From: Blasia pusilla
Lineage: Eukaryota
Assembly (NCBI GenBank): GCA_050084515.1
Contig: CM114271.1
Span: forward strand, 39,804,001-39,868,000
DNA length: 64,000 bases
Reading direction: 5' to 3'
In this document: positions 3,301-58,874 of the stretch, piece after piece
Layout of the letters: the number at the start of each line of letters is the position of its first letter
Numbering within the stretch: position 1 is the first letter of the stretch
Program-made: the position numbers and the translations under genes
Notes under the pieces: model-generated
Seen by the model: the letters and a program-made list of their open reading frames with translations, nothing else
Databases searched by the model: none
Told to the model about the DNA's origin: nothing

Positions 3301-6300
3301 TACATGTGCTGGACCTTGATGAATACAAGGTTAGTGGAATGTCCTATTCATGTTTCTTGTACTGTGGAAATCAATGTGTACCCATCTCTTGATGTAATGA
3401 CCTTTTGTATATCTGTAGGAAACTCAGGTGACATTTTAACTGCACCTGTTTGAGTTACTAAATAAATATACCTGGAAGGGTTTAGCATCTTCTTCAACCT
3501 TACTGTGACCTGGGATCATGAATACTAGTTTCAGAATTTCCTACGTGATGCTTGCTCTGTTGTGTTCCATCCTGGTAGCCTCGATATAAGGGCCATGGTC
3601 AAATTTTCTAATGTGTAAAATCAATTTTGCCAGCATAAAAACTTTTTTACTCACCCAGAAAGACTTATGTGAACCACTTCCCTTAAAAAAATCCTGCCCA
3701 GAAGACACATGTCAATTTGAGGTGTTGAAAATCAAGAATGTATCCTCCCTCAATAGTATAATTAGATTATGGGTGACAAGTGAAACACAGTCGTGCACCT
3801 GTGTAGACACTGCTGTCCTAAGAAAAAAATGTTTTAATGTTTGCAGTGGCAGGAGGTCAAACCAAAGCCAGGCGCTCTTTGGCCGAGTCCCCGGAGTGCC
3901 TTCCAGTTTGCTTCTCTTGCGGATGAGGTCTGTCGTTTGCAACTGAGTTAGTTCTTTATCTTCCATTGTGTTCGTCACTGCAAAATTCAGTCTGAGTGTT
4001 ACATATTTGAGCAGGGATGCTGTAAACGCTTTTTAGCTCATGTGTTGGAGTTGCTGATGGATTGTACAGATTTTTCTGTATGGAGGTTACTTTAAAGACT
4101 ACACGAGTACAGAGAAGGATACTAGCGAGAAAGGAGTAGTACTAGCTGACATGTGGAATTTAGATCCTCGAACCTGGGAATGGAACAAGGTGAGCTTAAG
4201 ATGTTTCTAAGTATGTCACGTCTGGAAGTATGTGATGAAGTAGTCTTTCTGTAAGATGATTCGCACCTAATTATCACTGCTGATGAGAATTTAACAGACC
4301 ATCACAACCATTTCAGGTGAAGAAGGTGGGACTGCCTCCTGGACCACGTGCAGGTTTCTCTATGTGTGTGCATAAGAAAAGAACAATTTTCTTTGGTGGG
4401 GTTGTGGATAGCGAAGATACAGGTTTGAACTCACCAGTATGACAGATACAGCTTTGAGATACAAGTCTTTGATCTATGGGGGTTCAAAGTTTGTGTGATT
4501 GTGAGACAATTTATTCTTTGTGGGCACAGAATTCTGAACCGTTGGGAGGTCTAGTTTGGAGAGCTGTTAAAGTAGTTGATGGGTGAACAAGAAATGGGGT
4601 TTTTCCTCTGTAGGCAATTGATGCCACTGAAATTTTTGTACCTGCAGGTGATTTGCTGAGGAGCATCTTTCTGAATGACATGTATGGATTTCAGATGGAT
4701 AATCGGCGATGGTATGGTGGTCCTTCGTTAATTCTATAAATTAAGCAGTGAAATGGAGTGTGATTTCTCAACCTCAGGAAGCCTAACAGTATGCTTCTCT
4801 TGGGATTGACAGGTATCCCATGGAGTTGCGGAAAGCAAAAGTGACAAAATCAAAGGTAGGAAGTTGGATCCATATGATTAGACAATTATTAGATCTCTCA
4901 GTAGATTAAACCAGAAATTTTGCGTTACAAATACCATCATGCCCAAGTTGATTTTGTAGAAACCTTTTGTCCTTAATTGGCAGATGAGGGGACAGGCAAG
5001 TCGGAAAGACCAGGCAAGCTCAGGAGATCAGCCAAGTCTGGAAGCAGCCAACAAACCCGAAGTGGTGGTTGATATGGAAGTTGAAAAGAAGGAAGAACTT
5101 GTGGAGCAAATGAAAATGGCTCTTCTGAAGGACACTGACATATCAAGTGACAACTGTGAAAGTATTGATGATTCTTCTTATGGGAAAGATGAGGTACACT
5201 AGGCACATCAATCTTATTTCTCATTAACTTCAGGTCCTTTTGTTTAGGTCATCAGCCCTCATCTCAAATAAGAGATATACTAAGAAGATCAACCACTCAT
5301 TGTTGACCGCTGTGAGTTTCAACGCTAAATGTTTTCTTACCTTCCACACTCAGACAAAGATGTAGAATTTTGTCGGACTCTCCTTTTGATGCTGGCTTCC
5401 ACAATCAAAGTTTGTAGTATGTTTATTTGACCAGATCCGGGTGTGCAATGAGTTGGTTATGACCGGGAAGGTTAATCTAGACTTAAGTTTGCTATCGCAT
5501 GCCTTAGATGTCATTCATGAAAGGTAAAGTATTGTAATTTTCCCTCACTAGTGTACATGGGTGTATATTCATCAGTCATGGATGTTGGACAGAGAGGTCG
5601 TCACCTGAGCTGATATTATTGGACTCTGAAGAGAACTACTGTCAATATTAGATACCAGGTGTAATGAGGTTGACGATAATAGCAGATAGCAGGTGTATAC
5701 AGTTCTGCTAATTTCACACTCGTCCCATCACTTGCAGATTGTTCGACCATGTGGACGTATAAATGCTGCCATGGTTGTAGGCAAAGATACCCTGTACCTA
5801 TATGGTGGTGTAATGGAGATCGGTGACCGTGAAATAACTTTGGATGATTTATATACCTTGGACCTGAACAAATTGGATGCATGGAACTTAGTAATTGAGG
5901 CAAGTCTCTGTTTCCATTAGTTCTAGCTGGTCTATTCACTGAAGCTACGTGATGATTTTGTTGTTGGCTGACCTTCATGAAAGCCTGAGTGCTCTATTTC
6001 AGGAGAATATGTTACAAATGTTATGCGTTGTGAAGTTTTCCATACTAGCAAATCTGATCCAAGGTTGTACATCTTAAGGGTTTATTCCCTTTTGTGTGGG
6101 ATGTCTTCATATTTTAAGCAATGGAGAACAGGCTTCTGGAGTATTTTCATGTTGAACCATCCAGTGGTGCCCACATTCCATCAAATTATATAGGATATTA
6201 CAATGTTGAAGGCTATTGCACTGATTTTAAGTAGATGACCACCTCAAATTCGCTCGTATGCTCGTCATTGCCTCTTTCTGGATTTTACTGCAGATTACAT

Positions 6301-8067
6301 GAGTAAATCCGGGGTGATAATTGGTAGTCCCACTTTTGCAGGCAACAGAAACTGACTGGGTTGAGGCAAGTGAATCTGAGGAGGATGATGATGACGATGA
6401 AGAGGATGGCGATGGCGAAGGCGATGAAGAAGATGATGACGCTGACAGTGATGTTGATGAGATGGATAGAGATTCCCAGGTGAGACTACCTCAAATTAAG
6501 TGCATTTGTTTATTTTATCCTGTTCTATCGTTGGTCAACAAGCTCATTTGGACAGGTTTGTGGTCAAGAGATTCGTGCAGAAGTTGATGAGTTTGCGAAG
6601 GTTAACGTGAGTCGTAAAATAAAGCAGGACTCTTTTAGAATCATGTTTTTGTCACCAAATTTACTCCAGACAATCTCCAAGAATCTGGATTTGTTTGAGG
6701 GCAGCCAGATAAGTCCGTTTCTAGGTTGTGATTGCTGCATGAAAGAAACATTATGTACCCCCATACGTCAAGAATGTACCTAGCCGACTAAAAACAGTGT
6801 TGCTCTCGTTAGCAATTCCAATTGAGTTTATCTTCTCAACTATCCTAACAGTGGAATATCGCTCCTCAATGCCGAACTAAGGAATGCTCTGAAAGACTTC
6901 CAAGTTATTACTCTTTCCATTCCTCCTCTCTATCACACTCCCAACACCATGACACGCCATCCTTTGAAGATTTAAGGGATGACGTTTCACTACTATAGCG
7001 TGGAAGGCTGGAGATTTTCTTTAAGGTACAGATATTACAAAATCTTTTTCTTACTGCTCTACATAGCGCGCACTTGGTTCAATCCATTATTTGGTTGAGG
7101 TCGCATGTTTAACCTGCTTTCTAATCCTTTCTTGACGTATGGGGGGTAACAGAGAGACATCGCCGAAAGTTCAGCGGTGGAGGCTGCGGCTGCAGTTCTG
7201 AGAGGTGGTGGCCGTAAAATGTCCCGCAAACAGCGAAAAGCAGAGATAGAGAGAATACGAGCAGAGCTTGGACTTGCAGATGCACAACGGACGCCCTTGG
7301 TACGTCCTGTGCTTTCATACAAGAATCTTTGCAATAATCTTCACACTACAGTGCTTAGCATGTCACGATCGATATTTTATTGTTTGGCGCTCGGAATTAT
7401 GCATGTTCTGACCACGCCAAATGTGCAGGCTGGTGAGACACTGAGGGACTTCTTCAACCGAACACTTATGTATTGGCAAGAGGCTGCGTATGCACACACG
7501 CAACACACTGGCAAGGTACTTAAGGAGTCAGCGTTATCCTTTCACAACTTGTTTATCACCGGATTCATCTGTGATGACTAACTAGTCGATAGACAATGCC
7601 ACAGGCCTGGTGTATCTTGTCTAGAGATACCGCTACCAGTCACACTTTCACAGGACAGGGCATAGGCATCTCCTTTTGGTACGCATACAGTGAACCCTTG
7701 GTTGCACTCCAGAGTAAGATTAACTGTGGCGTCTGGATGTGGCCGTCCAAGCAGGAGCTCCGCAAAGACGGATTTGATCTGGCAGAATCGAGATATAAAG
7801 AGTTGAAGCCTGTACTCGACGAGGTACATATAATTGATGGGATCACGTCTGGTTGCTTTCAGCTGTCCCGTTCTGCAAAAGAGAACTCGTCATTACTTTT
7901 CTAGGGTTGTGTATTAGATGGCTAAACTCTTCGATACTGATTGGAAAAACTCTATGCAGTTGGAGAAGCTGGAGAAGGACCAGAAGGCAGAAGAAGAAGA
8001 GGATGCTTCTCGTATGCTTTCATTGAAGAAATCCAAGGACAAAGCGAAGGCGGCTTCACGTCGGTGA
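388..8067 (+). CDS. KLHDC4: Kelch-repeat protein, KLHDC4-like, with C-terminal DUF4110; 5' end lies outside the window. Exons: 388-474, 989-1057, 1347-1479, 1588-1634, 1991-2077, 3084-3145, 3287-3329, 3847-3927, 4070-4189, 4317-4422, 4648-4711, 4813-4855, 4984-5193, 5738-5899, 6342-6479, 7153-7299, 7429-7515, 7755-7823, 7960-8067
   Basis: Phase-consistent AG/GT-bounded exons give PSPRCNCS-VTVNPAKETELIFYGGEYYNG, PPPRSAHQAV, GGEFTSPNQEKFHHYKDLW, PSPRSGHRM, FGGFYD, PGPRAGFSM, RPCGRINAAM, an acidic tract, then DAQRTP-GETLRDFFNRT..YW..ELRKDGFDLAE; stop TGA at 8065-8067. The middle low-complexity exons are least certain. Confidence 0.92.
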
Positions 8068-9078
8068 CACTGTAGCGTCCAAGTAGCTATAGTTTTTGGG
8101 CTTTGATATCAAAATGGTCATACGGTTCACATTACATATATATACTCATGTTACTTAAAAAAACCGAATTTGGTGTGAGGATAAGTGTAGTGTTTGAATC
8201 TGCTGGTGGCAATTTTGGAAGGCTTTTTCGAGAGGTGTTAACAGTTGCCTTAAGCGCCGGTTGCAGGCACTTCCATATTGGAATCACGGTGGCCAAGTTT
8301 GAAGTTCGTACAGAAATTTGAGTAGTTTCGCACACGTGAGCAAAGAATGGTTCGTTCGGATGTTAAGGTCCGAGTATCCAACTCATATGAAGGTCGGAGT
8401 CAGCAAGTCGAATTTCACCTGTAGGGCCGTAGGCATGACGGATAGTCATAACCTTGTGTCCGTGCCTTCCATCGCGTTTACTAGGATTTTTCCTACGAGT
8501 TAATCCGTTAAGGTACCGGGCCGATCTTTCTTTCCGGAATGCAAACCAATTGCAGCCCTCTTTGACTGGAGTAAACACCACATCGGTCGGTACGTATGTA
8601 CGTAACAAATCATAACTGCTATCTGATGGCTCCGAGTTTCAGGTTGTAAAATGTCGTCTGATATTGCCAGGGATCTTCACGGTGAATTCTTCTCTGGATG
8701 TGATGAACAAGGCACTGGAGGGGCGTAGATCGCGGAGAATTATCTCGTGGTTGTGGTTTTGTACCACGGCAGCATGAGCCCAACAGGGGACGCGGGGAGA
8801 GAGGTGGAGTTGGGGGGAGTCCAGCGGAGTGGAATGAAATGGGTGATTGAAGGAATGCACCGTTTCGTCCCATCGGTCCCACAGCGATCCATGCTGAGCA
8901 GCGATTGACCGAAGCAGAGCTATGGAGGTACAAAGGTGATCGTTCCATATACGCGGAAATCGCGTCGCGGATTTCTGTTCGCCTCTGCATGCGATATCGC
9001 AATTTAGGGAGACGGCTCGACTTGATGAGGTTGTAGTCTTTCAAATCGGACAGAACTTTCTTCTTGGGGCCTGAGACG

Positions 9079-10035
9079 ATGCCCTTCTGTGGCCACTGCT
9101 CTCAGGTCATCAGCTGTAGGACATGTGTTGAGTATCATCAACCTGTGTTTTCCGTTCCGAGGGAGAGAATCCAAGCGATTGATGCCTGCCTCGAGTGCAC
9201 AGAGGATTTGAAACGAAGCGTGCAGGAAAAGACAAAAAGCGTGGCGGATCTGAGAAGGACGGTGATTTGTCTCGAGGAGCAGCTTCACTTTTTGAGAAAG
9301 TTAGAGCCTAAACCGGGGAGTGAAAATTTTAAGGGAGACATCAGCTTTATAATAGAAGACAACAAAGCTGTACCCGAGGTTGTTCAGGCGCATCAGTTCG
9401 TATTGGTGAGCATTTCGGCTAGCTTCAGATTGCGTGAGGTTTTTTTGGTCAAAAGTTTGCAAGGAACGGAAGATAGAATTTAGAACTTTTGATTGTCTAC
9501 GGATATTGCTACTTCTGGCTTTAGCTTCCTAAGAATACGTTCTAGATGAAAACCTACCGCTCTCTCTATCGTGTTTATGGCAGATCAAACTGTAGCTTGG
9601 CAATTCTGCTTTGAATTTGATCATGACGCGGGTGCAGTTGTTGCTTGTTGGCAGGCCAGCAAATCCCCCCTGTTTCGTAATATTTTTGACCCTGGCATGC
9701 ACGAAAAACTGCCTGCAACCATACATGTCTACGACACGACAGCCCCGGTCCTTCGTGCGATGGTAAACTTCTGCTACACGGCAGAAATCACCTACAATCA
9801 TGAGGTGACACCTGAGAGAGTTTTACGAATTGCACATAAGTACGACATCCTTGAACTGAAGAATCATGCCGAAACGGTTCTCGTCCAGGGCATCAACCAG
9901 GACAACCTCGTTCATACGATAAGAATGGCTCATAAGCTGGAATCGACGGTCCTGAAAGAAGCAGCTATAGCGTATTTTGAAACTCACTTTTCAGACGTGA
10001 AAAACTTCGTTATTGACTCACTCGTTGGACGCTAA
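9079..10035 (+). CDS. BTB/POZ domain protein (~235 aa) with N-terminal Cys motifs and coiled coil; exons 9079-9405 and 9655-10035
   Basis: ATG 9079 (MPFCGHC..CRTC..CLEC), then GDISF..VQAHQFVL|ASKSPLFRNIF..LRAMVNFCYT..LRIAHKYDILELK typical of BTB; GT at 9406, CAG ending 9654, phase 0. Confidence 0.88.
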
Positions 10036-22888: not shown

Positions 22889-23187
22889 CAAGGTTGCATG
22901 TGGACAAAGTTCATGTCCGTGGGTATGTCCATGTCCGTGAACTTATGTCTGTCCTATCGAAGGACTTGTCCGTATGGGCCCCATCCTTTCCCTACTTTCT
23001 TATTCCCCTTACTTGCCTTCGTGTTCCATACTCCCGAATTTCTTCCTCCCTCATTGCTCCGCTCATCCTTGTCTTGCCTTCCATCATGGACTAAAAGTAT
23101 GGGTCCCACCTCTTGGAACCCATGTCGGTGGACATGCCCATACTTGTCCGTCCTAAGGAAGAACTTGTCCGTTTTTTTGCAAAGATG
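22889..23187 (+). mobile_element. hAT-type MITE copy inserted in the Gypsy element
   Basis: Ends caaggttgca...tgcaaagatg; TSD gttcttaa/gttcttag; internal sequence matches 27621-27950. Confidence 0.85.
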
Positions 23188-27620: not shown

Positions 27621-27950
27621 CAAGGTTGCATGTGGACAAAGTCCGTGTCCGCGGACATATCCATGTCCGTGGACTTATGTCCATCCTATGGAAGGACTTG
27701 TTCTTATGGGCCCCACCTTTCCCTTCTTTCTCATTCTCCTTACTTGCCTTCGTGTTCCATACTCCCCCATTTCTTCCTCCCTCCGCCTCCACTCTCCCCT
27801 CCCTCATTGCTCCTCTCATCCTTGCCTTGACTTCCATCATGGACTAAAAGTGTGGGTCCCATCTTTTGGAACCCATGTCCGTGGATATATCCAAACTTGT
27901 CCTTCCATGTCCGTCCTTAGGAAGGATTGGTCCGTTTTTGTGCAACCATG
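27621..27950 (+). mobile_element. hAT-type MITE (330 bp)
   Basis: TIRs caaggttgca/tgcaaccatg; perfect 8-bp TSD aatttgat on both sides. Confidence 0.92.
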
Positions 27951-28228
27951 AATTTGATGCAAGCATAAAGGACGACATGGATGGATACTTGTTCCGTGAG
28001 ACTATCAAATGGGTTCTTCGATCCATGCCAACACCACCACCACCCCTTGAGATTGAGGTTGACCACCAATCTTGAGCTCTTGAGCATCTAATGTCGGCCT
28101 TTGATCACCTGATCCCATAGTAAAGGTACACAACCTCGATTCTAGATGCGAAAGGATATTGTACACACCCTGCCCAACAAAGATGGCTTTGTGTTGTTGG
28201 ATGTCTATTTATTATGTTGTGTAGGACG

Positions 28229-28780
28229 AGATACGATTCGTTCAAGTTTGTGGTAATGCCTTTCGGTCTATTTAATGCGCCTCTGACGTTCACCACTTTG
28301 ATAAACTCCATCTTTCATAAGGACACAGATGAGTATGTGATCATCTACATAGATGACAAACTCATCTATTGAAAAACACTAGAGGAGAACACTCAACATT
28401 TGAAGACTATGTTTGAGAAACTCAAGGCAAACAAGTTGTATGCAAATGCCGACTAGAGTGAGTTCGGTTTGACAAAGATCAAGATCTTGGGGCATGTGGT
28501 TAGTGCAGATGGAGTGAGTCCAAACATGGAAGAGATAAGGGCAATTTCGAATGGGAACCGCCTTCCACTGTGAAGGGGATGAGGAGGCTCATCAGAGCGG
28601 TCCAATTTTACTAGACATACGTGAAGAACTTTTCGAGAATAGTGAAACCTCTCACAGATTGGACCACCAAGTTTCCAAACAGGAAATGGACCGAGGAAGT
28701 GAAGAAGGAGTTCAACTTTCGCAGGAACTAGTTTTGAAGCCGCCGGAGTTCGACCAACCGTTTGGAGGTGTACCATGGAG
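28229..28780 (+). pseudogene. Ty3/Gypsy reverse transcriptase fragment
   Basis: RYDSFKFVVMPFGLFNAPLTFTTLINSIFH..YVIIYIDDKLIY*K..LGHVVSADGV with in-frame stops. Confidence 0.9.
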
Positions 28781-29960: not shown

Positions 29961-30359
29961 CATGCGGAAGGAGCTTATAACATACAACAAAGGGCGGGCC
30001 CTACTGGAAAAGTCACCCTCAACAGAGTAACCCCCAACCCTATGTATGAAACCGCATCCCTACCTAGACACTACGGCCCTACATAAGGTATGGCCTCTAC
30101 TAGCACACTATACTCTACGACATAATCCGTATGGTCATGACAGTTGTCGTCATACAACATGCATCGCTGACATACTATACTCACATACATACATAACAAA
30201 GACGAGACCATACACAAACACAAGTGTACCACAACTCGCCCCCCTAACTGGCGGTTAGGTCCCTCTAACTTCCAAGAAGCCCTATACATCTACTACATGC
30301 TATACACCTTCGTGGGTGCAGGAATCAGAAGGCCGGGTGCAAGCACGTGCCTGATGAAC

Positions 30360-32008
30360 CTGGAGATGTCGTAACACACGCAATATCTCCCAAAAAATCG
30401 AGACCTAGGGTCGTGTAATCCCTTACTACGACCAGCACGTGTATAATCCTGACATGGCCATCCAACAATCACCAAATCCACAAGACCAACCCTCTCAAGG
30501 TCCTACGCCCCCAAAAATGCAATGTGTGACGACAAAGCACGCTGGTACCCACGAATTGCTGATGGCGGCAACAACTCAAGAAATCTCCGCATCAACTGCC
30601 CAATATGTCGGGATGAGACTCTCTGGGCCGTCTCATCTCGCTCCACATACACGTATCTCCGCACAAGAATACCGGCGTGCAACACTGCAGCCAAACCAGT
30701 GCTAATCCCACCAAAGAGATCTAACACACAAATGCCTTCCGACGGATACAACCATACAATGGGTGTAGTATCCAAGGGGATAACCCAACTGGACCAGAAG
30801 TAGGAGTCCGCAGTGGAGGTTCCTCTTCCTCGTGAGGTATAACAACCTCACACCAAAGCCTCTTGCATTAGGCGATCAGCCTCCTGCCATAGTGCACCGC
30901 CTGAACTCCAAAGTGGCACATCCAACGATGAGGATACCACTGCTGCAAAACTAGGGACCTCCTCTACCTCTTCATGCACAGGAGAATCCATAGCAGAAAG
31001 GTTACCCTCCAAAAAGTCTCATGGCCAAGTGACTACTCCACTAAAACTAGCCAGAGATGCTAACACTGTTGGGGACGACCCTCTTGGTCGAGCCCCATAA
31101 ATAAATCTCATAGGAACCTGGCTCATACGTCCATCCCCAGACTGCCAACCAGTTCTATAAGATGTTGTTTCAGTCCAGAAGTCCATCTGAAAACCCATCG
31201 GGTACAATACTGCTCCTCCAACTATTACATCATACGACTCGGCCAATGTGACCACTGCAAATACTCCCAACCTGGAGCTATCAGTCGCATGATCTGGTCT
31301 CAACTGTACATACAACTTCCCCGATGGCATGAAATGAGACCTATCATTGGCTCCTCCAAGCGATGTCTGAATCTGGAATGGGCAAGGCTCAAGCTCTGAC
31401 CTCCGACTACCCAAACCAATACATGTTGTCTTTCCCAACATCAAAGGTTGGGCACCAGAGTCTAACAAGACTCTATCTGGTCTACACACCTGTCTTGTAT
31501 GACTCACCAATCGAAATATCCCACTCTGGTTGTCCAACATATAAACACCAGGTGTAAGCCTCTCACGATCAATGGTTGGCCGGGCAGGTAATGCATCCAT
31601 CTTCGCCGCTGCTGCCTGCCAAGTAGCATTGGTACTCAATGCTACACCTGACATAGAGGGTTGCTCCACTGTAACACCCTCATCCATCTCAACATGTGTA
31701 GCAGTAACACTCTCACGTTCACACAACGTGGGTGCTAGCTGAAATACATGAGCTAAGTCAACTCCTAAGGCCATCAACTCAGTGGCTGAAAGCAATGGGG
31801 ATCCCAACACTGAAGTTGTCATCCGCAATACTGCACTGGATGCTGCATCCATGTCTACTACATGCGATATAGATGCCTCAGTCCCTACTGTAGGCTCAAT
31901 AGACTGCGTAGGAACCATAGATGGAGTCCTAAGCACCTCTGACAACAAGAATGATTGGGGAAGCCTATCCTGCCTCCCAGCCTCATCCCTCTGTGGATCC
32001 AACTCCAC
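30360..32008 (-). pseudogene. Polyprotein remnant: retropepsin-like protease followed by C5-cytosine methyltransferase motifs I-IV
   Basis: VLLDSGAQPLMLG...YDVIVG protease; VLDLFGGISTG (motif I), YVYVERD (motif II), DLVIVGWPCQDYTRAG..GLHDPRSRFF (motif IV, catalytic PC). Listed ORFs 31019-32008, 30503-30775 and 30293-30481 share one frame, broken by stops. Confidence 0.85.
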
Positions 32009-33631
32009 AATAGCACCACGTGGCTATGACGCTCGAGTGGCTCCTCTCGTAACTGCAGTCGTTGCCTCAACCTGTGCTGCACTCGCCATATAAGAGAGAT
32101 CATCCCCTCCATAAGAGGTGGAAGCCCATGCATAAGAGCTAAAAATCAGACAAACTTGCTGTCCATACAACTCTAGAATCGCAAATCCGACAGCGCTTCC
32201 GCCCAGATTCATGCACATAGAAATCTGCAACACTCTTTCACCACAACAGCAATCTGCTCCATACACTCAAGTAGATAGCTTCACATGAGATCACAATAGA
32301 GGTAGCAATAGGAACCTCCAACCTACAGAGCTTCCGTACTCCAAGCTCTCCACATCAGAAAACTGTCGAACACGAGTCAGAATCTTCAATCTTTGATAAC
32401 TTCCAACTCCCTGGACGAAATCCAGCGATCTAAAGTGTGTTTGAAAGCTCTGAGCAAGGCGCTTCTTTCCCAACCAACCACGCACCAGATACACACCTCC
32501 AACATAGGCCACAAGCCACGAACATCCACGGCTGAGTAAACAATCAGCCCTAACCAGATCCTACTGATCTACGATCGAAGCTACCATCGATCTACTATAG
32601 TTCTTTGAGTGAAATCCGTGAAAGACCTTATGTCATAAACCATGTATAGAATCACATACAATCGAGCCACACCCACTCCAGGATGGGAGAATCCAGGTCG
32701 AAGCTTGGGGGAACCACCATAGCCAAGAGCTCTTCTCACTACCAAGGCTAACTTCCAACGCACCGGCTCAACTCAAAGAACTAACGATTCTTTGAGTACA
32801 CTCCACACTATATCCTCCAACTTAAGGGCGGGCCCTATTGGAAAAGTCACCCTCAACAGTGTCGTATAGTAAAATCAGCCAGTGGGTAAATTCTTTCCTC
32901 GTTCAGTGTTCAATAGATTTTTATTAGTATTAAGAAAATTAGCTTAGGAAAAGGAAATTCCCATATTTAAACCTCTTTACGGTGCCTCTTTTATGCGGGC
33001 CCAACTTTAGGAAAAAAGGTAATAAATAAAAAATGAATTTATAAAAGTAAAGTAATAAAAGATGACTTTATAAAGGTTGGTGCTTTAATGAAAAGCAAAA
33101 GTAGGCTTGGTTGGTAGCTAGGTTAGTTGGGGTAATTTGGAAAATATCAAGTGGGTAAAAGAGGATATTTTGGAAGAGATAAGAGGAAATCTAATTGTGT
33201 CAAAATATGATTGGCTGAGCAATGAGAGGAAGCCATGTAGCACAAAATAAGATTAGCTCTATTTCGTACTCTTGTGGATCTCTTGTGAGTATATAAAGAG
33301 GCGGGACCTTCAAGGGTTCATCATCTTCTATTACACATCTTGAGTCTCTTGTGTGACTCTTGAGTATATGGTTTTGGGATTGCTTGCTCTTCCAATGAGA
33401 GTGGATCACCCCTCTTGGGAGAGTAACTTGATCATGGTCTATTCTTCAAGAGGTTTTTAGAGTGTGGTGTGTGTGTGGAAATGAGAGGTTTGTCATCTTA
33501 GAGGAGTTTAGTCATACTAAAATAGTGAATGTTTTGGCTTGTTCCTTTCCCAATGAGAGTGGATAACCCTTCTTGGGAGAATAATTCCTCCCAAACCCAT
33601 TCTTGAGGAGAGTAGAGAATGTCTATCAAGC

Positions 33632-33879
33632 ATGGATAGGGGTGGAGCACGAGTTGTGCCCGACTTTTCTTTCCTCAATCCATACCATGTCAAGACACTC
33701 TTTGTAGATAGGCATTGGTTCACTCGCTATTTAGTTTATCACTTTAGAGAGGCGTTCATGAACCAAGTCATTCAATCTCCAACTCCGGTCATCCTTCCTA
33801 TTGTCACATGTGGAAGGACATGGGATTTATCGTCACATATGGAAGGACATGGGATTGTACTTTGTATGTCCTTATATAG
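33632..33879 (+). pseudogene. Small ORF-A in solo LTR (72 aa once a 29-bp tandem duplication is removed)
   Basis: Duplicated gtcacat(g/a)tggaaggacatgggatt at 33803 and 33832; the repaired frame ends WDCTLYVLI* at the same position as the 21539 copy. Confidence 0.55.
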
Positions 33880-33885
33880 CAATCC

Positions 33886-34146
33886 ATGGACGTCAATAGG
33901 CCTACTCAAGTAGGGTTTAACACTAGTTGTGCTATCTTCCTCGTGAACAAGCGTAAAGTAGTTTATAGGGATTTTATGGTTAGGAATTTTGGGGTCCGAT
34001 GTTACCAAGAAGTGATCGCCTTGGCACTTCTATTTGTGATATCTGTCGTGAGACAATGGAGAGTATACAAAAGAATGAATTTTTTATTGAAAAAGGAGAA
34101 CTTCTTAGAGGGTTCACCTTGCATTGACCACGTCTGCCGCAGCTAG
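33886..34146 (+). CDS. Small ORF-B (86 aa) in solo LTR, unknown function
   Basis: MDVNRPTQV..TSC..KVVYRD..FGVRCYQEV; a disrupted homolog MDLDRLL*V..TQC..KVANRE..FGQKYYDEV starts at 21769. Confidence 0.45.
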   Translation: MDVNRPTQVGFNTSCAIFLVNKRKVVYRDFMVRNFGVRCYQEVIALALLFVISVVRQWRVYKRMNFLLKKENFLEGSPCIDHVCRS

Positions 34147-34849
34147 AAGATATGCCCTTACTCGAAGAAAGGCTCTCAACACGACAAGGGAATAACCCCC
34201 AACCCTATGTATGAAACCGCATCCCTACCTAGACACTACGACCCTACATAAGGTATGGCCTCTACTAGCACATTATAATCTACGATATAATCCATATGGT
34301 CATGACATAGTGCCTCTCTTTCACTTTGGCTTTTCAAAAAAAATTTGTCAAGAGAGAGGGAGATCAAATATTTTAAAGGCTTCCTCTATGTTGTTATGTT
34401 GAAAGCCTTTTTTTTACTCTATTCACTAGAGGTTTTATGACTTGCTCTATGTCTTTTGACTTCTATGCAGAGTGCCAATCCAAATGCCAAGTAGTGACTA
34501 GAGGTGTCATTGCCATCATCACACAAGGTGCAAGAGTTGGTGCCGAGCTTTCCAATGCCAACCAGGAATCTCTAGTGCTAACCATCTACTCTACGTGATT
34601 AGGACCTCCAATAAATATTATTGTTCTCCATTACAACAACTTTGGGAAATAAATCAATAGTACTGAATGTGAAGAAAATTCCTTCTAGTGTGACCAACTT
34701 AGCAATATCAATATATGCTCTTGCTTTGCTTGTTGTGAATTTTATGCAGGAGACCAAGTGATGACTAGAGCTTCCAACCTTAGTTAGAGAGAGAGATTGT
34801 ACGCATTAAGTAGTGCCTTATGCTGCCTTGAGACCATAGACCATAATAT

Positions 34850-35635
34850 AGATTAGCAATCGGTGGTCTATTTGGGAGGTGACACAAAACAACCTATTCA
34901 AGGAACTTAGCCAGTGAGCATCAAGCTACTGAATGGAGTACAAACTGCCATATGTCTTGTATGTCGGCCGACTCAAGAAGAATCTGATCTCAGTAGATCG
35001 ATTTGATCAAGCGGGAGCACATGCGACAGTCAAAATTGTTGTTGTATCGTGGAACACAAAAGTGTTAGAATGAGAGACTGTACTCATTAAATAGTGGCTT
35101 ATGTTGCCTTGAGACTATAGACCCTTGCGCTATGATGTTGCACAAGACATTACGTACCAGTGGAGTAGCTTTGGGCTTACCTAATGTGTGGAACAATTAT
35201 GGTGTGAGCAACCTAGCAATATCATCATATGCTTTTGCTTTGTGTGTTGTGAATCTCTTTACAACATAATACATCTTACCTAATTGGAATGCCCTAAAGG
35301 AGTTACTCACAAATGTAGCAGCTTTGGGCTCTAAATTGTGGCTTTAGAATGTGTTGAATAGCTTTGGTGGTACGAGCTGAGCAATCTGTATGGGTGGTAA
35401 TCAAAGATTAAATCAAGGAAGAGGAAGCTATAGTTGTCCACATAGAGAGTTAGAATGGATATAGGAGCCACTCAACACGTGGCTCACCACCTCAACACAT
35501 TTAACAATTTTCAAGCTAGTAATACACATCAACAATCAGTGGTATATTTGGGAGATGACACAAAACAACCTATCCAAGGAACTCAGTTAGTAAGCATCAA
35601 GCTACTGAATGGAGTACAAACTGTCATCCCAGATG
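34850..35635 (+). pseudogene. Ty1/Copia protease-region fragments, locally duplicated
   Basis: MDIGATQHV..VYLGDDTKQPIQG and YVGRLKKNLISV; ~34856-34950 is repeated at ~35535-35627. Confidence 0.7.
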
Positions 35636-35639
35636 CTAG

Positions 35640-38060
35640 AGTCATCATTGTAAATCCTCTTCATGAGTCTATGCCTAAATTGGCCATCTGTGTTACTACC
35701 ACCTGTAACAAGTTCACTATAGAGTGGATGAGACAACATTAGGTACAGTTGAAAGCAATGTGGGATGAGTATTGTTGAGTTGATGTCGAGCCTTTAGTGG
35801 GACATGCCAGTGATTGGGATGCCCGTAGTAGAAAACTAATGATGGAGGATTTTAGGGGTGTTAACTCTACTATATCTAGGTACAACGTAGGGTGGGAAGG
35901 ATGGCACTATTCTATCTCTATTCTTCCTAATGGTGATCTCTATGGCTTTGGAGACCATGATACACCTCACAATGGGAAGAAAGCAATTAATCCATTGGAT
36001 AGATGCTCAGCTACTTGTGTCCTTGGAGATCAACATCCGTCTCTGTCATATGTGACAAATGTCTATAACCACTACAAAATTCATGACCATGGCTTGAAGT
36101 GGGATGATGTGAATAGGACTAACATGCAAAATTGGGCTGGGTTGAATTGCTTCAAAGAGAGTGCAAGCTTGTTTGCAAGATATGTTTGAAAGAATGGATG
36201 TTGGTCATGACAGAAGCCTAGGGACCCAACTATACTTAGAGTTTGTGGTGATTACATTGATATTTTTTTCTCACGTAAGCATGACTTGAGGAGTCGTGTA
36301 GTTTTGGAATCTAAAGTGTCATGGTTCTTTCGACTCTGGAGACTTTGGCTGAGACATGGTGATCATTCTGTGATAGAGAGTGTAGGATTTACGAAAGATA
36401 AGAACATGATATCAGTGCAAGCTTTCCATGATATCAACGTGTCTTGCAATTTTTTTTGTATTACTAATGTGTGCATTTTGTGACAAGAATCCATACTAGC
36501 AAGTTCCGTTTCACCTCCTAGGATCTAATTGTTGTGAGATCTTCTTCAGCAAGGTAGGTGGAATGAGCGGCCATGAACGCAACTATGATTTTGGGTCTTT
36601 GTTGGATAGTGGAGTGGGATTGAATAGATTGGTTGGCTTGGAATTTGGACCAGAAGGATTAAACATTGGCTGGTCTCACCCAAAGCAAGATCATGTGTGG
36701 GGAACTCTCCATCCGTTAGGTGTAGGGGAAGATGCTCCCAACCTATTTGACTATTCATTGATTCATACTAATGAGCCGGTAGTTGATGCCCTTAAAGCCA
36801 AATCAATATTGACCACGTTGAATATGTCTTGTAGATCCTCTTTGCCTACAAGTCTGAGGCGATGGTGGTTGCATCCAGGGAATGTGGAGGCAGAGACGTG
36901 GCTTGATTTAGCTATTATAAATGCGGCAGGTACATGTGATGACTCTGCGGATTTCATAGAACACAAACCAATAATAGCATGGTTGCACAAAAATGGTCAA
37001 GTCCTTCCTTAGGATGGGCATGGACGGACAAGTTTGGACATGTCCACGAACATGGGTTCCAATATTTGGGACCCTCACCATGATGGAAGGCAAGGCAAGG
37101 ATGAGAGTAGCAATGAGGGAGGGAGGAGGGAGGGAAGGTGGAGGGAGGAAGAAATGGGGGAGTATGGAACACAAAGGCAAGTAAGGGGAATGAGAAAGAA
37201 GGGAAAGGTGGGGCCCATAAGGACAAGTCCATCCATAGGACAGACATAAGTCCACGGACTTTGTCCACATGCAATCTTCAATAGTAAGCCCTCAACCATT
37301 CGAGGACTCTTCTGATGAAACAGAAGTTGATGATCCAATGTCGAGGGATTTTCAATAGTCTTGATGCATGGGAAAGTGATGCACCGGCCTCTATTGAGTC
37401 CAAAGTGATTGGTGAAGACTTGGATGAGGATGCAGATTACAATCCATCCATAGAGACAGATATATTGGGACATGTTGTAAGGCATGTATTCAGTTCAATT
37501 TTGCAAGAGTGCACACATAGAGTTCCTCGTCGAGTTATGCCTACTGTGATATTTGAGAGTAAAACATACTACAAATGTACTTTGGTGAGTGATTGGGCTT
37601 GCAATCCTTTCATTTCTAAACATAGGCTAATACATATGACACATAAAACATAGTACACTATAGGTAAGGTAAAAGAACCAACTAATCCAAATTTTCGACT
37701 TGTTATGTTCACATTGGAAGTGATATAGCTATTTTTTTAGTCTACTACAAAAGTTGGCCTTTCTTCCATATCATGTGAGTCAAATAAGAGAAAACAAAAA
37801 GAGTTGGATGAGAACACAGTAGTCCCTACAAAGGAATTTTGGTTAGGTTGTATTCTATTCGTCATACATAAATATGGTAGTCAATCGGAAAGATGTAGTC
37901 TTGTAGATCTCCTATTGATCTTTTGGACCGGCCTGTCCCAAAAGATGGGCAGACATACAGTGTCTGTCAAATATTGTGCAATTGGTATCGGCGCTGAGGT
38001 AAGAGCAATACCTTGTTCACATATGATGTATGTGATGGCCAATATATTGATATTGAAATG
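35640..38060 (+). pseudogene. Decayed DDE transposase, P-element/THAP9-like, interrupted by a MITE
   Basis: GHASDWDARSRKLM, DTPHNGKKAINPL, DDVNRTNMQNW, FFRLWRLWL, FHLLGSNCCEIFFSKVGG; order resembles P-type SD / D.PH..K..RN / QD.LE.FF..R..GG motifs. Superfamily call is inference. Confidence 0.55.
36978..37279 (-). mobile_element. hAT-type MITE copy, reverse orientation
   Basis: catggttgca...tgcaatcttc; degenerate TSD aataatag/aatagtaa; reverse complement of the 27621 copy. Confidence 0.85.
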
Positions 38061-39170: not shown

Positions 39171-39428
39171 TGCATATGGAAAAAACACGTGTCCGTGGAC
39201 TTTCACCCGTTCTAATTTTCCATGTGAGCCCCACCTTTCCCTTCTTTCTCATCCCCCCACCCCACTTACCCTATATGTTCCATAATTTCCCGTTTCTTCC
39301 TCTCTCCACCCCCACTTCCTCCTCCCTTATTATCTCACTCGCCCTTAGCCTACATTCCATCATGAACTATAAATGTGGGCTCCATCTCTCAAAATCCATA
39401 TCTGTCCTACGGACGGACTTGTCTGTTT
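39168..39428 (+). mobile_element. Diverged, truncated MITE copy between two microsatellites
   Basis: ggttgca..gtgtccgtggac..cccacctttcccttctttctcat..catcatgaactataaatgtggg resembles the family. Confidence 0.7.
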
Positions 39429-54245: not shown

Positions 54246-57200
54246 CTACACTATCCATCTTGCCAACAAGATTATCAACCTTGCTCTTGACAGAGGCTGC
54301 AAAAACAGACAAGGTACAAGAGAAGAAACCACTACGTAAGAAATTATCACTACTTGATGCGAGAGACGAATAAACTCACACAGAGGATGAGAACATGAGC
54401 CTGCGATAGAATCTCTACCTTGGTTTGAAAATCGTCTACCCCCGCCTCAAAAAATAGCTCTCTATCAGATGGCATGGCGTTCCCTGTAAGAGCAATAATG
54501 GGAGTTTTGACACCCATGTTCCGAATCTGCCTCGTGGCCTGCATGGACAGAGAACTGGTGAGATAATACTGGAAAATCGGACTGCTGCTCCGCACTGACA
54601 TACCATATGCCCTAACTCCAACCAAATGCACGTCCCCGAATGTAAACCCTCTGAGAAAGAAACCTACCTCATGTCCATCCATCACGGGCATTTCTTTGTC
54701 CATTAGAATAAGATCGTAAGTCCTTCCTTCCTTGTAGAAATCCACAGCAACCTTCCCATTCTCCGCCTCATCGCATTGAAGATTAAGATTCTGAAGCACT
54801 TTCCGCAATATTATCTGGTGACATGTAGCACGTCAGATTGACATATTCATGTTCCAATTACATCAACACCGCAAATTTTAAACATAGCTTCTACTGAGAA
54901 ACGGTATTTCAACATCTCCCTAACGTATACCCAACGTACTTACTCTGTTGATTTGCGTGTCTTCGACCAATAGGACACGCCTCTTGAAAGTATTCGGGTC
55001 ACACGCAGTTGGAGTCGTAGACTTGGCATTCCTGTTCCTGAAGAATTTCTCTTTGCTGTGCAATGGAGCCCGTGTGCTCGTGCTCTGCTCAGATATATGG
55101 GTATCATCGTATGGTGAAGGGAGCTCTTGTTCGGTGTCCAAGTCTCTCGAGATGAGAGGGAATGGCAAGCAGAAGTGAAAGGTGCTGCCCTTGCCTTCCT
55201 CGGAGTCCACACCAATGTGTCCACCCACTTGCTCAACGAAACGCCTTGCCATACTAAGACCGAGACCAGAAATTCCAGCCTTCTGAACCCAGCCCGAAGT
55301 CACAAAGGAGTAAGGCTCAAAGAGCTTCAACTGATCCTCTTCAGATATTCCTGCAGGCATACCCACCCATTCGTAAGTTTCAATCCACCACCGACGTAGA
55401 GCCCCGAGAACTCTCACCTTCTCAACGGTGTGAAAAAGTGATCTAAAACTCCCAAATATAGCTAACCGGCACTTCGGAACGGACATAACTCATTCATGAC
55501 ATTTGACCCACACTATCGCCAGGCACTTACCGACTCCAGTGTCTTTTACAGAAATTCTTAATCGCGCAACTTTGCCATTAGACTCTTTCTTAGGGCAGGA
55601 CCACTTTCTTGCAGCTGTTGGACAACGCTCCTCAACCACTCTAGCTGATTTCCTTGACGAAAGTGAGGACCCTCGATCTCTCCGCAAGGTAGAAGCTGCC
55701 AGACTTGGGCCTGGCGTTTCCACGTCCTTGGCATCGAGAACCTCCTCGCACTTTAACTCCAGCTCAAGGCTGCCTCCCGGGTGACTAAATTTGACAGCAT
55801 TGCTTAGGAAATTGCCTGCAGAAGTCCCCAATAAAGGCTGGTTGTGCGTTAGATTTCGACTTGCAGGGAAAACCAGGATGACACAGAATAAACAGTCCGT
55901 GATCACTCAACCCTCATTCAGTGGACGGAACTCACCGCGAAATGACAACAATGCTCGACTCTCTAGGTTCCGCCGCAATCATGAATTTAGAAACTTCAAA
56001 TACCGTGAGTTCGAAGAGGAACTATACCCAGAGTTTGCACAATGCGCTGTTTATCTCCAACGACGTAATGCGATGAGAGTAGCTCTCTTGCAACGGGATC
56101 GACGGTCATTTTGAAGGTAATCTGGTTTTGATCGATCAGATCTTTCAACCCCCACGATAAGAAATTTACAACTCCAAGAAGGCTGAACTCGTCCCTATTC
56201 AGCTGCATTTGGCCTATCTCCCACTGACCTGTTGAAATGGCAAGAACTTTTCAGAACGAGCCCACTGTGGAACGTCGAATAGGAGACCCTTCGAGCCCTG
56301 AGGTTACAACAGTGCCTACTTATACAAAAGAATCTGCTGGAAAACTGACCCATATCGGTAACGTCGTCGAGGACACTAGTCATGGTTTCTGCGCAATCCA
56401 ACATCATCTGCACGAGGTCCATCTTGTCCCCTGCTTTGCCGATTGAGCCCTCTCCCTCTCCAGTAGCTCGCATGTGCCCAAGGCCAAGCACAATGGCATT
56501 GAAAGGGACTGCAGACAATCCCACGCAACAGCCGAAAACTTTCATCCGTTCAGTACTAAGCTATGGGGCCAAGAGGGAGGTACAAGAGAAACAGAGGATA
56601 CTTGAAAATCCACTGCACCGGCTGACCTATTCGCCAATCTATCCTTCGGACCCGACTCCATCCAAGTGTCGAAGATAACAGGTAACTGTAGGAAGGAGAA
56701 CAAATTTTTGTGCGAAAATCTGGCCACGAGAACGTACTCAACGCCACGGGATTAATGCCGGACTGGCGAAGCTCACCTCTAATGTTATGGAAAACGTACG
56801 CCATAAATTGTTGCTTGGCAAGCTGCGCTTGTTCGGCCCTCTCATCGGCCTCCTCCACACGGCAGCGAGTTTGCTCCACGACCTCACAGTGCGAGCACAG
56901 CTTCTTACGCTTCCAGAACGCGAATTTTCCCTCCACCAAGCGGCACCCTACGACTGAAGAAATAGCCACGGCAAGCAACCAAATGAAAGGTTGCGCTCGT
57001 GCCATGATCTGGCAGTGTGCACGTACGTACGTGATCCTAGATCCAGACGACTGGATATTTTGAAAGTACTGGTTCTTCAAGCTTACCGTGGGGTGAGCAG
57101 CGAGGACGAACTCCATGCAGAAGTACATTGCAACTAGAGGGAACAGCAACAACAAGAACGCTTTGGCTATGTGCATCCGTAGGGCATGTTTCGAACTCCT

Positions 57201-57788
57201 TTCAGTTTCGACCTCGATAGAGTCCTGCAAGCGAACCTCTTTCTCGTTGCCCAAGAGGGACTTCCCCAAGTCGGAAGTGGTCTGAAAAAACGAAATGGAA
57301 GAAGAGGTAGACTTCCCTTTCGCCTTCCCAAACTCGGAACCGGCCGGTAGCGACCTTGTCCGCCTCTCGTACAGATTATGATTTCTAACAACAAAGTCTT
57401 CCTTGTGCACTAATACGTCTTTGCCTCCAAAGGCCCTCGAAACCTCCTGTGACACGTCTTCCATTAGTCTCCATTCATCTCTTGACTCCCTGAATTCTCC
57501 ACTTGCTGACGAAACCGTCCGGAAATCCTTCCTACTTAGTCGCTTCCCCCGCGCTATTCCTGAAGAAGGATAGTCGTTGAATTCCTTTCCTAAAGTTTGA
57601 TCAAGCTCACTATTCATCGGGTTTCGTGATCCCAGCGACGAGAATCGCTCCAACCTTCTCGACTTACTCCCATCAGCCTGGACATCTCTTTCGACTACTT
57701 CGTCCCTAACTCGAGCTTCCATGTACAGAGATACCGTCGGCCGGCGGACGCTGGAAACGACGTCTGACTTGCAAAAACTTACTCTCAT
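54246..57788 (-). CDS. Membrane-bound hybrid histidine kinase (2 TM, HisKA, HATPase_c, receiver), ~793 aa. Exons: 57788-56777, 56508-56350, 56228-56028, 55815-55531, 55350-54944, 54814-54668, 54538-54419, 54296-54246
   Basis: H-box FMAYVFHNIR|VPFN; GDKQRIVQTL|GNFLSNAVKF (N-box); VKDTGV|GIS (G1); LFEPY (F); GLGL (G2); GKGSTF; receiver VLLVED..DLILMD.EMPVMDG..IIALTG..K|P. All introns GT-AG and phase-consistent; total 2382 nt. Confidence 0.92.
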
Positions 57789-58874
57789 GGTGCTTAAACT
57801 CAGAGCCGTGAAATATATTCCGCAGAAGAGTCGAAGATGTCAAAGGCGATGCGCTGGGAATGCCTGTACCTATTTACAACTGAGATCACCTTATGTTCAC
57901 TCGATTGACATTCAAAACATGCAGGCTGCTGGGAACAGAGTCGAAAGTCTGGAAGACCATCCACCAACGACGAACCTGCAGAGATGAGGACAGTCAGACA
58001 AAGAACATGAGCGTACCGCGAGGGGGGTCGGGAAGAAGAATACACAAGTAGAATGCATCCAGAGCAACGAGATCATTTCTGGAGATTGTGTTCACTGAAT
58101 GGCACAGCACAAGCAGGCCGAGGGGAACCGACCGGAATGGGGGAGGAGTGAGAACAGCGCAGACTGTGAGCTACAAGAACTAAGGAGCGAATGGGAGAGA
58201 ACCGGATCACGCCATTGTTTGGCTGTGTCACGGACGCAGTTACTGCAGCGAAGAAAGCGGATCGGAGAAAATATGACAACGAAACCGGCTAGTAGAAATA
58301 GGAGGAAAGAAAGTGAAAGAGAATACGAAGGTGACACAGCCGAGGAAGGAGGTGACGGAGAGAACCTCGATCGAGAACGGCAAGCAGGAAAACGAAGCTT
58401 AAACGGATTGACTCGAAGGATGTTAAAGTTAACTACTGCCTCTGCCATCCATCTCGAACCAGACTCCGGAGATTCGATCCACATGGCAGAGATGCAGTAC
58501 AGATACGCGCGTTGCGCAATATTATTCTTTCCTGTCCCGTGTTACAGCACATCATCGGATTTCCCTCTCTCCTTCGGAGTCCTCCCGAGTTCCGTCCTGT
58601 GACTCCACGGACGGGCCCGCCCGCGGTGTGCATTGCCCACTCGAAGGCGGATAAACTTGAGCGCTCACCGGCACCGGTTTTGGGGACTTTACTCAGTTTC
58701 CTGTATCCTGGCCGGCAAATTGTCTTCACCCTGTCGGGCCTCGAGCGCGTCATTTTCCCGACAAGTCGTCGAGCTAGACCCGTTCTGTTTCCCGAGCAGG
58801 CTGTATTTCCGGCGATGTACATGACTCAGTCCGCACAAAAAAAAAATGAAAGATGCACTTCGATAAAAACGAGT

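Follow-up and report, generated by a model that had tools for sequence, protein, structure and literature searches.

The locus in the window

We analysed a stretch of 64,000 nucleotides of the liverwort Blasia pusilla (contig CM114271.1 of assembly GCA_050084515.1, positions 39,804,001 to 39,868,000; hereafter the window), which holds on its minus strand, between positions 29990 and 34307, the remains of a retrotransposon carrying its own C5-cytosine DNA methyltransferase (DNMT). A retropepsin-like protease (PR) and then the N-terminal half of a DNMT3-like methyltransferase lie in a single frame from 32020 to 30342. The protease displays the motifs VLLDSGA (31471-31451) and YDVIVG (31234-31217); the methyltransferase, in the same frame, displays VLDLFGG (30727-30707), YVERD (30649-30635), GWPCQ (30463-30449) and GLHDPRSRFF (30421-30392). 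Three stops interrupt this frame, at 31021, 30850 and 30505. An earlier inspection of the letters alone (the sequence-only reading) had proposed this arrangement, with DNMT motifs I, II and IV in the net frame of the protease, and all its elements could be located. It had also supposed two compensating indels; comparison with a longer genomic copy recovered a net-zero pair of 1-nt indels, near 30857 and 30775, but also a third one near 30395.

The remnant of open reading frame 1 (ORF1) extends from 32131 to 30342 and is 92.7% identical to the longer copy. It comprises the C-terminal spacer of Gag, the protease (31561-31181, with its DSG at 31462-31454), a linker and the first half of the methyltransferase (30760-30342), which retains motifs I, II, IV (PCQ) and V and has lost motifs VI to X. 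Once the stops are replaced by X, the segment 30760-30341 matches the DNA methylase profile PF00145 with 22.3 bits and an E value of 1e-4, narrowly above the cut-off of 22, and the pattern linking motifs I to IV, present once in the window, is absent from all 100 base shuffles. The protease alone gave no Pfam match in the profile search, but over 130 amino acids it shares 39% identity (E 2e-24) with the region of a homologous protein (P0039) that holds its protease and carries PF13650/PF13975.

Several events have damaged this copy. Relative to the longer copy, about 4.0 kb are deleted at 30342/30343 (comparison-copy positions 5096 to 9085), and this deletion accounts for the missing reverse transcriptase (RT), RNase H (RH), integrase (INT) and DNMT motifs VI to X, so that the copy is internally deleted, as had been proposed. 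Only a remnant of the 3' untranslated region (30343-30248) follows. A second deletion, at 32136/32131, has removed about 2.5 kb of the leader and of gag (comparison-copy positions 823 to 3306), leaving a leader remnant at 32597-32136. Moreover, a foreign insertion of 1327 nt (32860-34186, plus strand, ends TGTCG..CGACA) splits the 5' terminal repeat, A1, into a first part at 34307-34187, which starts with TGTCATGACC, forms the left attachment (att) end and aligns with positions 1-123 of A in longer copies, and a second part at 32859-32610; in undisturbed copies A is 368 nt long and ends TTTCA. At the other extremity, a polypurine tract (PPT; TTAGGGGGGCGA, 30247-30236) stands directly before repeat B1 (30236-30145), which is 107 nt long in undisturbed copies and has here a short deletion near its end. 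An att-att junction (30148-30139) then joins B1 to a truncated A2 (30142-29990); it reads GACA-AC-TGTC in the window and is the palindrome GACA-GC-TGTC in most copies. The rest of A2 and the whole of B2, with the right att end, are lost, and the target-site duplication (TSD) is unreadable. The two repeat pieces are identical at 145 of 152 positions (95.4%), close to the 96% announced for a pair of long terminal repeats (LTRs); they are, however, not plain LTRs, A1 being split by the insertion and the 3' end being a truncated B.A. With two deletions, a 3' truncation at about 29990 and an insertion in its 5' repeat, the window copy is dead.

A large, recently active and transcribed family

The genome assembly searched comprises 390 Mb in 26 contigs. 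The DNMT half as query gave 3841 first-look candidates and the PF00145 profile 5348, neither figure being a copy number; among the 40 scored with the former, the 39 outside the window were 93-94% identical to it. A second subfamily (subfamily 2) accounts for 26 of the 30 loci fetched from the PF00145 candidates, and its least damaged copies are about 60-67% identical to subfamily 1 in DNMT protein. The exact 32-letter junction occurs 215 times in the genome and is unaltered in 4 of 10 copies selected by other criteria; therefore roughly 500 such ends, at least, would exist in subfamily 1.

The complete polyprotein, for which the sequence-only reading proposed a search of the genome, is present. 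Long copies reach 9.8 kb in the order gag-PR-DNMT-RT-RH-INT, with Pfam matches to RVT_1 (E 1.6e-32), RT_RNaseH (4.5e-37), Integrase_H2C2 (3.4e-16) and rve (1e-13) as well as to PF00145 and Retrotrans_gag; no chromodomain was matched in the frames scanned of the long copy. The DNMT region is present in 16 of 20 copies picked by their 3' junction. A1 and A2 are identical at up to 366 of 368 positions within one copy, and in RNA run X24, whose species label is that of the DNA run holding the family best, 4801 of 10.1 million reads fall on the element, nearly all on the sense strand and covering its whole length; two runs presumed to be RNA, X11 and X16, were set aside. Hence this liverwort harbors a large Ty3/gypsy DNMT family, recently active and still transcribed. 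The window copy is almost certainly a dead deletion derivative of the streptophyte Ty3/gypsy DNMT3 lineage, of the kind of KnitGypsy-Dnmt3, the element of the alga Klebsormidium nitens for which de Mendoza et al. (2018) described gypsy domains, a DNMT3 and DIRS-like A-coding-B-A-B repeats (PMC5890265).

A split-repeat layout with an internal junction

We found the layout A(368)-coding-B(107).A-B in 10 of 10 subfamily-1 copies chosen by DNMT similarity. Canonical LTR elements have two complete direct LTRs, whereas here the 5' end carries A only and the 3' end B.A-B. The termini TG..CA and the short duplications are nevertheless those of canonical elements (TSD of 4-6 bp): among 25 copies with both ends, a 4-bp TSD is exact in 17, agrees at 3 of 4 bases in 5 (thus at least 3 of 4 bases in 22/25) and is worse in 3, five further copies without A1 in the fetched stretch standing outside this set. 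The B1/A2 junction consists of two att ends placed head to tail and separated by 2 nt, GC in 8 and AC in 2 of 10 unselected copies, GC giving the palindrome GACA-GC-TGTC. The same layout is found in subfamily 2, with an A of about 515 nt, a B of about 128 nt and a 4-bp TSD in 3 of 3 copies, and, together with the junction motif, in four metagenome loci (L227, L233, L236 and L240) whose DNMT identity goes down to 40%; these four and L218 display a TSD in 4 of 5 cases. B1 follows a G-rich tract in all the lineages examined, subfamily 2 and the metagenome relatives among them.

Lineage variants are shared in cis by both A copies and by both B copies along their length (for B, 33 copies with the variant in both against 3 with it in one, over four columns), and therefore both are remade from one template in each cycle. 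Moreover, in a pattern search of the genome, the junction followed by A and B occurs 174 times and the junction followed by A and leader only twice. These two copies are not permuted: their A2 runs 90-150 nt into the leader and then into B. Permuted insertions (A-B.A-coding-B), expected from an unbiased circle with two junctions, amount to 0 of 176 pattern matches. Together with the PPT, the self-primer/PBS pair and the RNA joints (below), this suggests that the functional LTR is B.A, and that its end-joined cDNA would be opened by the integrase at the internal junction.

Probable self-priming and a proposed replication cycle

The bases following A1 begin with CTCAAAG rather than TGG and pair with a site inside A (no comparison with a tRNA library was made). 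In the window, this primer-binding site (PBS) adjoins A1 at 32610-32598 and is complementary to 32782-32771 and not to a tRNA CCA end. The latter segment, an exact complement of the PBS, would be the first 12 nt or so of the RNA; a putative TATA-like box lies at 32815-32808, about 30 nt upstream of the predicted start. The self-primer site stands 28-32 nt after the TATA-like box, and both subfamily 2 and the 40%-identical lineage likewise have a TATA-like or TATAAAA sequence at -28 to -32. In subfamily 1, 10 to 14 contiguous pairs form in 18 of 24 copies, with a 14-bp stem in the RNA fold; in subfamily 2, 16 pairs form in 2 of 3 copies; and in the metagenome relatives, 15 to 17 pairs form in 4 of 7 loci, a value reached in 0 of 500 shuffles for each. 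The paired sequence is wholly different among these three lineages while its complementarity is kept. We consider it likely that reverse transcription is self-primed from the predicted RNA 5' end, in the manner of Tf1, whose RNA 5' end is complementary to its PBS (PMC7175516). Some observations weigh against this reading: fewer than 10 nt pair in 6 of the 24 subfamily-1 copies, the pairing is unclear in 3 of the 7 metagenome loci (one cut short, two weak), and the single pile-up of reads in A is at A162 and not at the predicted A195, a position which may represent either a start or an end.

Another property of this region is its folding. A forms a hairpin at 32771-32800 of the window, with the predicted self-primer as its 3' arm, and an imperfect hairpin is also found in subfamily 2. 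A start in the loop would free the self-primer at the RNA 5' end and mask the one in A2.

We propose that the RNA starts within A, about 30 nt past the TATA box, and ends within A2. Its first 12-17 nt would anneal to the PBS as the primer of the minus strand, and plus-strand synthesis would begin from the PPT, where B starts. The product would be a cDNA with a functional LTR B.GC.A at each end (B.A-coding-B.A). The ends of this cDNA would then be joined, the A end to the B start, yielding the A2-B2 joint seen in genomic copies. In the leader-side LTR, the integrase would open the palindromic CA-GC-TG junction with cuts staggered by 2 nt (CA|GC|TG), generating processed ends, and the opened molecule would insert as A-coding-B.A-B with a 4-bp TSD. 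A comparable reaction is described for the foamy-virus integrase, which cleaves palindromic two-LTR circle junctions (PMC1180852). The two copies with A2 extended into the leader are consistent with priming downstream of the PBS. On the other hand, such a circle would contain two equal B.A junctions. The model offers no reason for the opening of the leader-side one alone, nor for the lack of permuted copies (0 of 176). We favor end-joining followed by cleavage of the internal junction by a slight balance of probability, and less firmly than self-priming.

The repeat order, shared with SymbioDIRS and KnitGypsy (PMC5890265), also invites a replication of the PAT/Ngaro type, in which the RNA would run from A1 to B2, the internal B1.A2 would splint its ends into a circle and this circle would be inserted, the split direct repeats keeping their function despite a DDE integrase. 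Such a cycle accounts for the internal junction and for the identity of the repeats. Its RNA should nonetheless span the A-to-B joint, and in run X24, among the joints listed, B-to-A is covered by 85 sense reads while A-to-B is covered by none in sense and one in antisense; B2 therefore seems untranscribed. The conserved PBS/self-primer pair and the PPT are priming signals of the LTR type, the element leaves 4-bp TSDs, and the long copy, which possesses a DDE integrase, gave no match to a tyrosine recombinase (the last 550 nt or so before B being outside the all-frame scan). DIRS, PAT and Ngaro elements use a tyrosine recombinase and usually make no TSD. We thus hold a PAT/Ngaro-like cycle to be improbable, and retain self-priming and end-joining as the working model.

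A conserved stop codon between the methyltransferase and the reverse transcriptase

The DNMT closes the Gag-PR frame. A stop stands at the same codon before RT in 21 of 23 subfamily-1 copies (the next commonest codon being stopped in 4 of 23), and it lies in a TAG-CAR-YYA context in 16 of the 21 stops fully read. The same stop is found in most subfamily-2 copies (7 of 10) and Sphagnum-like loci (10 of 11) and in both loci of a group at 50% identity, and two gene models of Marchantia (P0002 and P0003) terminate 92 residues past motif X. UAG-CAR-YYA is the read-through signal of tobamoviruses, of the tobacco mosaic virus (TMV) type (PMC3542737). Gag-PR-DNMT would thereby be made at the level of Gag and RT-RH-INT by read-through of a few percent, and particles would contain many copies of the methyltransferase. 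Judging from the position and context of the stop, an expression of RT-RH-INT through read-through is probable. Two facts argue in the other direction: the Sphagnum-like context is CAA-CCY and not CAA-YYA, and the 40%-identical lineage does without the stop, since 4 of 7 of the loci listed are open and none has CARYYA.

The methyltransferase domain and its possible role

The full natural domain of another copy has DNMT3A as its best sequence match in the PDB (E 6.8e-15), and its predicted fold (pLDDT 71) is closest to DNMT3A/B in a Foldseek search (E 8.9e-16, TM 0.59/0.72). In copies other than that of the window, motifs I to X follow in canonical order, intronless, within the polyprotein frame. 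Of 26 subfamily-1 copies, 25 retain the catalytic PC and 23 the NVP of motif VI; of 10 subfamily-2 copies, all retain the PC and 9 the NVP. Over alignable codons, the ratio of nonsynonymous to synonymous divergence (dN/dS) between the subfamilies is 0.18 for DNMT, compared with 0.15 for RT, 0.10 for RH, 0.10 for INT and 0.23 for PR; it is 0.17-0.22 for DNMT against five metagenome relatives. Within subfamily 1 it rises to 0.63, where decay after insertion dominates. These ratios indicate that the DNMT of the element is under purifying selection.

We consider the likeliest job of the domain to be the methylation of the new cDNA, mostly at CG, in the particle before insertion, and give this proposal an even chance. 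The same role was put forward for SymbioDIRS-Dnmt3, the domains of which carry out de novo CG methylation in yeast (PMC5890265). The domain of KnitGypsy-Dnmt3, in the same study, gave no methylation in yeast, a result that its authors called inconclusive and which weighs against this role. A depletion of CG or CWG as a mark of self-methylation was sought, and rejected as not specific, which also counts against it: the observed/expected CG ratio is 0.53 in subfamily 1 (14 loci) and 0.72 in subfamily 2 (11), and subfamily 1 resembles copia elements (0.46, 20 loci) and Ty3 elements devoid of DNMT (0.51, 5 loci). The copy-to-copy C-to-T rates (CTG 0.127, CAG 0.064, CG 0.056, CHH 0.015) are consistent with methylation by the host following insertion. 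The CAGCTG of the junction contains CHG sites on both strands, and a CG lies just upstream.

The domain could instead be kept for another role, such as binding RNA or DNA in the particle, steering the integrase to or from the junction, or methylating host target DNA. The nonspecific CG depletion and the inactivity of the K. nitens domain in yeast speak for such a role, expression at the level of Gag would suit a structural one, and related elements bear the DNMT elsewhere, between RNase H and integrase. Yet the catalytic PC, ENV and RxR motifs are kept, and are invariant across homologs of 40-50% identity, and the related SymbioDIRS-Dnmt3 domains do perform de novo CG methylation, so that we regard a non-enzymatic or host-directed role as rather unlikely and cDNA methylation as the better proposal.

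Relatives and age of the fusion

We collected 61 homologous proteins, including some from Marchantia (78%), Calypogeia (80%), Sphagnum and Closterium, and 258 clusters of homologs at E 1e-30 or better; among 10 representatives looked up, 8 were from Closterium, 1 from K. nitens and 1 had no name. The K. nitens protein GAQ93235.1, probably one of the published KnitGypsy copies, is colinear with ORF1 over gag, PR, the linker and the DNMT as far as motif X, with 27% identity in 1129 columns (E 6e-61). Because of this colinearity, the gag-PR-DNMT fusion appears to be ancient in streptophytes and not a recent local capture. The sequence-only reading, which placed a PR-DNMT polyprotein family fairly recently in this lineage, was thus right about an abundant and recently active family, as the near-identity of A1 and A2 attests, and must be corrected as to the age of the fusion. 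Its refutation by a host DNMT gene captured only once is ruled out by the 5348 PF00145 candidates and the homologs in bryophytes and streptophyte algae.

In a FastTree phylogeny of 88 of 206 DNMT domains, both subfamilies group with Marchantia, Calypogeia and Sphagnum with a support of 1.0. The deep nodes are weak, the K. nitens protein is not resolved with the bryophyte clade and no host DNMT3 is included, PF00145 and DUF3444 searches of the genome having recovered none; these points weaken the case for a single ancient fusion. The one DUF3444 match is a DnaJ-like gene, and the PF00145 matches remaining besides element copies are phage- or bacterial-type genes on small contigs. On two of these (G000:C20 and C23; loci L053-L056), intronless phage-/bacterial-type C5 methyltransferases lie beside terminase-like frames, probably of contaminant or viral origin.

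Could a liverwort Ty3 element have captured a bryophyte host DNMT3 recently and independently, in convergence with Klebsormidium? Retrotransposons have captured DNMTs repeatedly (PMC5890265; 10.64898/2026.05.21.726589), and the trees are missing the host DNMT3. Against this, gag, PR, linker and DNMT are colinear with K. nitens, the DNMT occupies the same position in Closterium and in lineages at 40-50% identity, and the unusual repeats are common to KnitGypsy. In addition, no named host DNMT3 appears among the homologs, 21 of the best 150 having been scanned and all being polyprotein-like. Such a recent capture is therefore very unlikely compared with an ancient fusion.

The Sphagnum-like elements raise another question. 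Four metagenome contigs (L190, L191, L218 and L227) carry elements 81-90% identical to named Sphagnum proteins. Compared with subfamily 1 (the copy on G000:C6 against L190, L191, L207, L218 and L227), they share 79-80% of their DNA letters across stretches of up to 7.4 kb, the junction letters of L190 are the same, and the synonymous divergence (dS) of the enzyme domains is 0.4-0.8, against 1.1-1.5 between the two subfamilies of the genome. This hints at a possible horizontal transfer of the element between liverworts and peat moss.

In a further class of polyproteins (P0073, P0076, P0082, P0091, P0096 and others), a related DNMT comes after RNase H and before integrase; many of these proteins end in a PHD finger, and some have a G-patch. 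The order with RT before DNMT accounts for 73 of 242 DNMT-bearing proteins, and the members of this class cluster together in the DNMT tree (support 0.83) and in the RT tree (0.96).

Surroundings of the element in the window

The element sits in a nest of old repeats. On one side lies a decayed RT fragment (28220-28500, plus strand; RVT_1, E 2.5e-13) and on the other a copia-type Pol beta-barrel fragment (35455-35635, plus strand; PF22936, E 1.3e-10). A dispersed repeat of about 300 nt, in both orientations and 82-92% alike, is found at 22889-23187, 27621-27950, 36978-37278 and 39216-39257. The 1327-nt insertion in A1 would be a solo-LTR-like repeat of another abundant family, for which we obtained 2344 first-look candidates, the 40 scored being 84-87% alike. 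Its ends are similar to the DNMT family's att ends, and its target duplications are of 4 bp and mostly NCGN, a target preference described for Phygy (PMC6317226). Farther away, a hybrid histidine kinase gene (54350-57839, minus strand) is 52% identical to Marchantia MpHK-like, 46-47% to Riccia and 25-32% to named mosses. By these values, the host would belong to the complex thalloid liverworts.

Comparison with known systems and significance

With KnitGypsy-Dnmt3, the liverwort family shares a Ty3/gypsy pol, an unrearranged intronless DNMT3-like domain under purifying selection and the A-coding-B-A-B repeats; it differs by its land-plant host, its hundreds to thousands of copies and a DNMT identity of 38%. 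The main text of PMC5890265 gives no mechanism of priming, integration or translation for KnitGypsy. SymbioDIRS-Dnmt3 and PAT/Ngaro resemble the family by their repeat order and, as described in the same text, a DNMT3 in the polyprotein, whereas the liverwort element has a DDE integrase, TG..CA ends, a 4-bp TSD and gypsy-type RT/RH. As in Tf1/Tf2 and the Tf1/sushi chromoviruses (PMC7175516; PMC6317226), the part of the tRNA primer would be taken by the 5' end of the RNA, here a predicted one, which can pair with a PBS adjoining the 5' repeat; unlike them, the element bears a DNMT, split repeats instead of two LTRs, a primer of 12-17 nt and not 11, and no chromodomain match in its long copy. 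The prototype foamy virus, whose integrase cuts a palindromic att-att junction into processed ends (PMC1180852), offers a parallel for the step we propose, with the difference that its junction arises from DNA ends, while the liverwort junction is encoded within the LTR and the A-B end joint is not an att site. TMV-type read-through involves the same stop and 3' hexamer between structural frame and polymerase (PMC3542737); in the liverwort, where read-through is predicted, the stop parts Gag-PR-DNMT from RT-RH-INT in a retrotransposon. Troyka, considered as a match, was ruled out by its CG..CG ends and 3-bp TSD (PMC12440569).

DNMT3-bearing Ty3/gypsy elements of algae were thus already known, and the liverwort family extends them to land plants, where they are abundant, selected and transcribed. 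We found no report of land-plant DNMT retrotransposons in the literature searched, whose coverage is incomplete, the supplement of PMC5890265 falling outside it and the word streptophytes being used loosely in two papers; in their accessible parts, Ikeda et al. (10.1101/363937), Neumann et al. (PMC6317226) and PMC12344493 do not describe such elements. Within the same literature, the replication and translation anatomy of the liverwort element was not found in print.

Taken as a whole, the explanation by a DNMT family with split repeats, self-priming, end-joining, read-through and cDNA methylation seems to us probable. A broader proposal is tentative, and we would not bet on it in its entirety: an ancient green-lineage clade of DDE-integrase elements with a self-primed permuted LTR (B.A), obligatory end-joining and att-att cleavage, in which a Gag-level DNMT3 would methylate the cDNA and possibly mark the protected junction, and which would have moved horizontally between liverworts and peat moss.

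These elements have practical consequences. The A-coding-B.A-B elements will be missed or mis-dated by standard LTR finders, and the DNMT domains that they carry, in their thousands, confound the counting of DNMT genes in bryophyte genomes. If the inferred cycle is true, it would provide a natural case of a DDE integrase forced to open the junction of a circle, a route that has been debated in the case of retroviruses. Finally, if our reading is true, DNMT3-bearing retrotransposons would be a major transcribed class of land-plant repeats and not an algal curiosity, and the reason why a transposon should bring along a silencing enzyme of its own would become directly testable in the model liverwort Marchantia, where methylation mutants exist.

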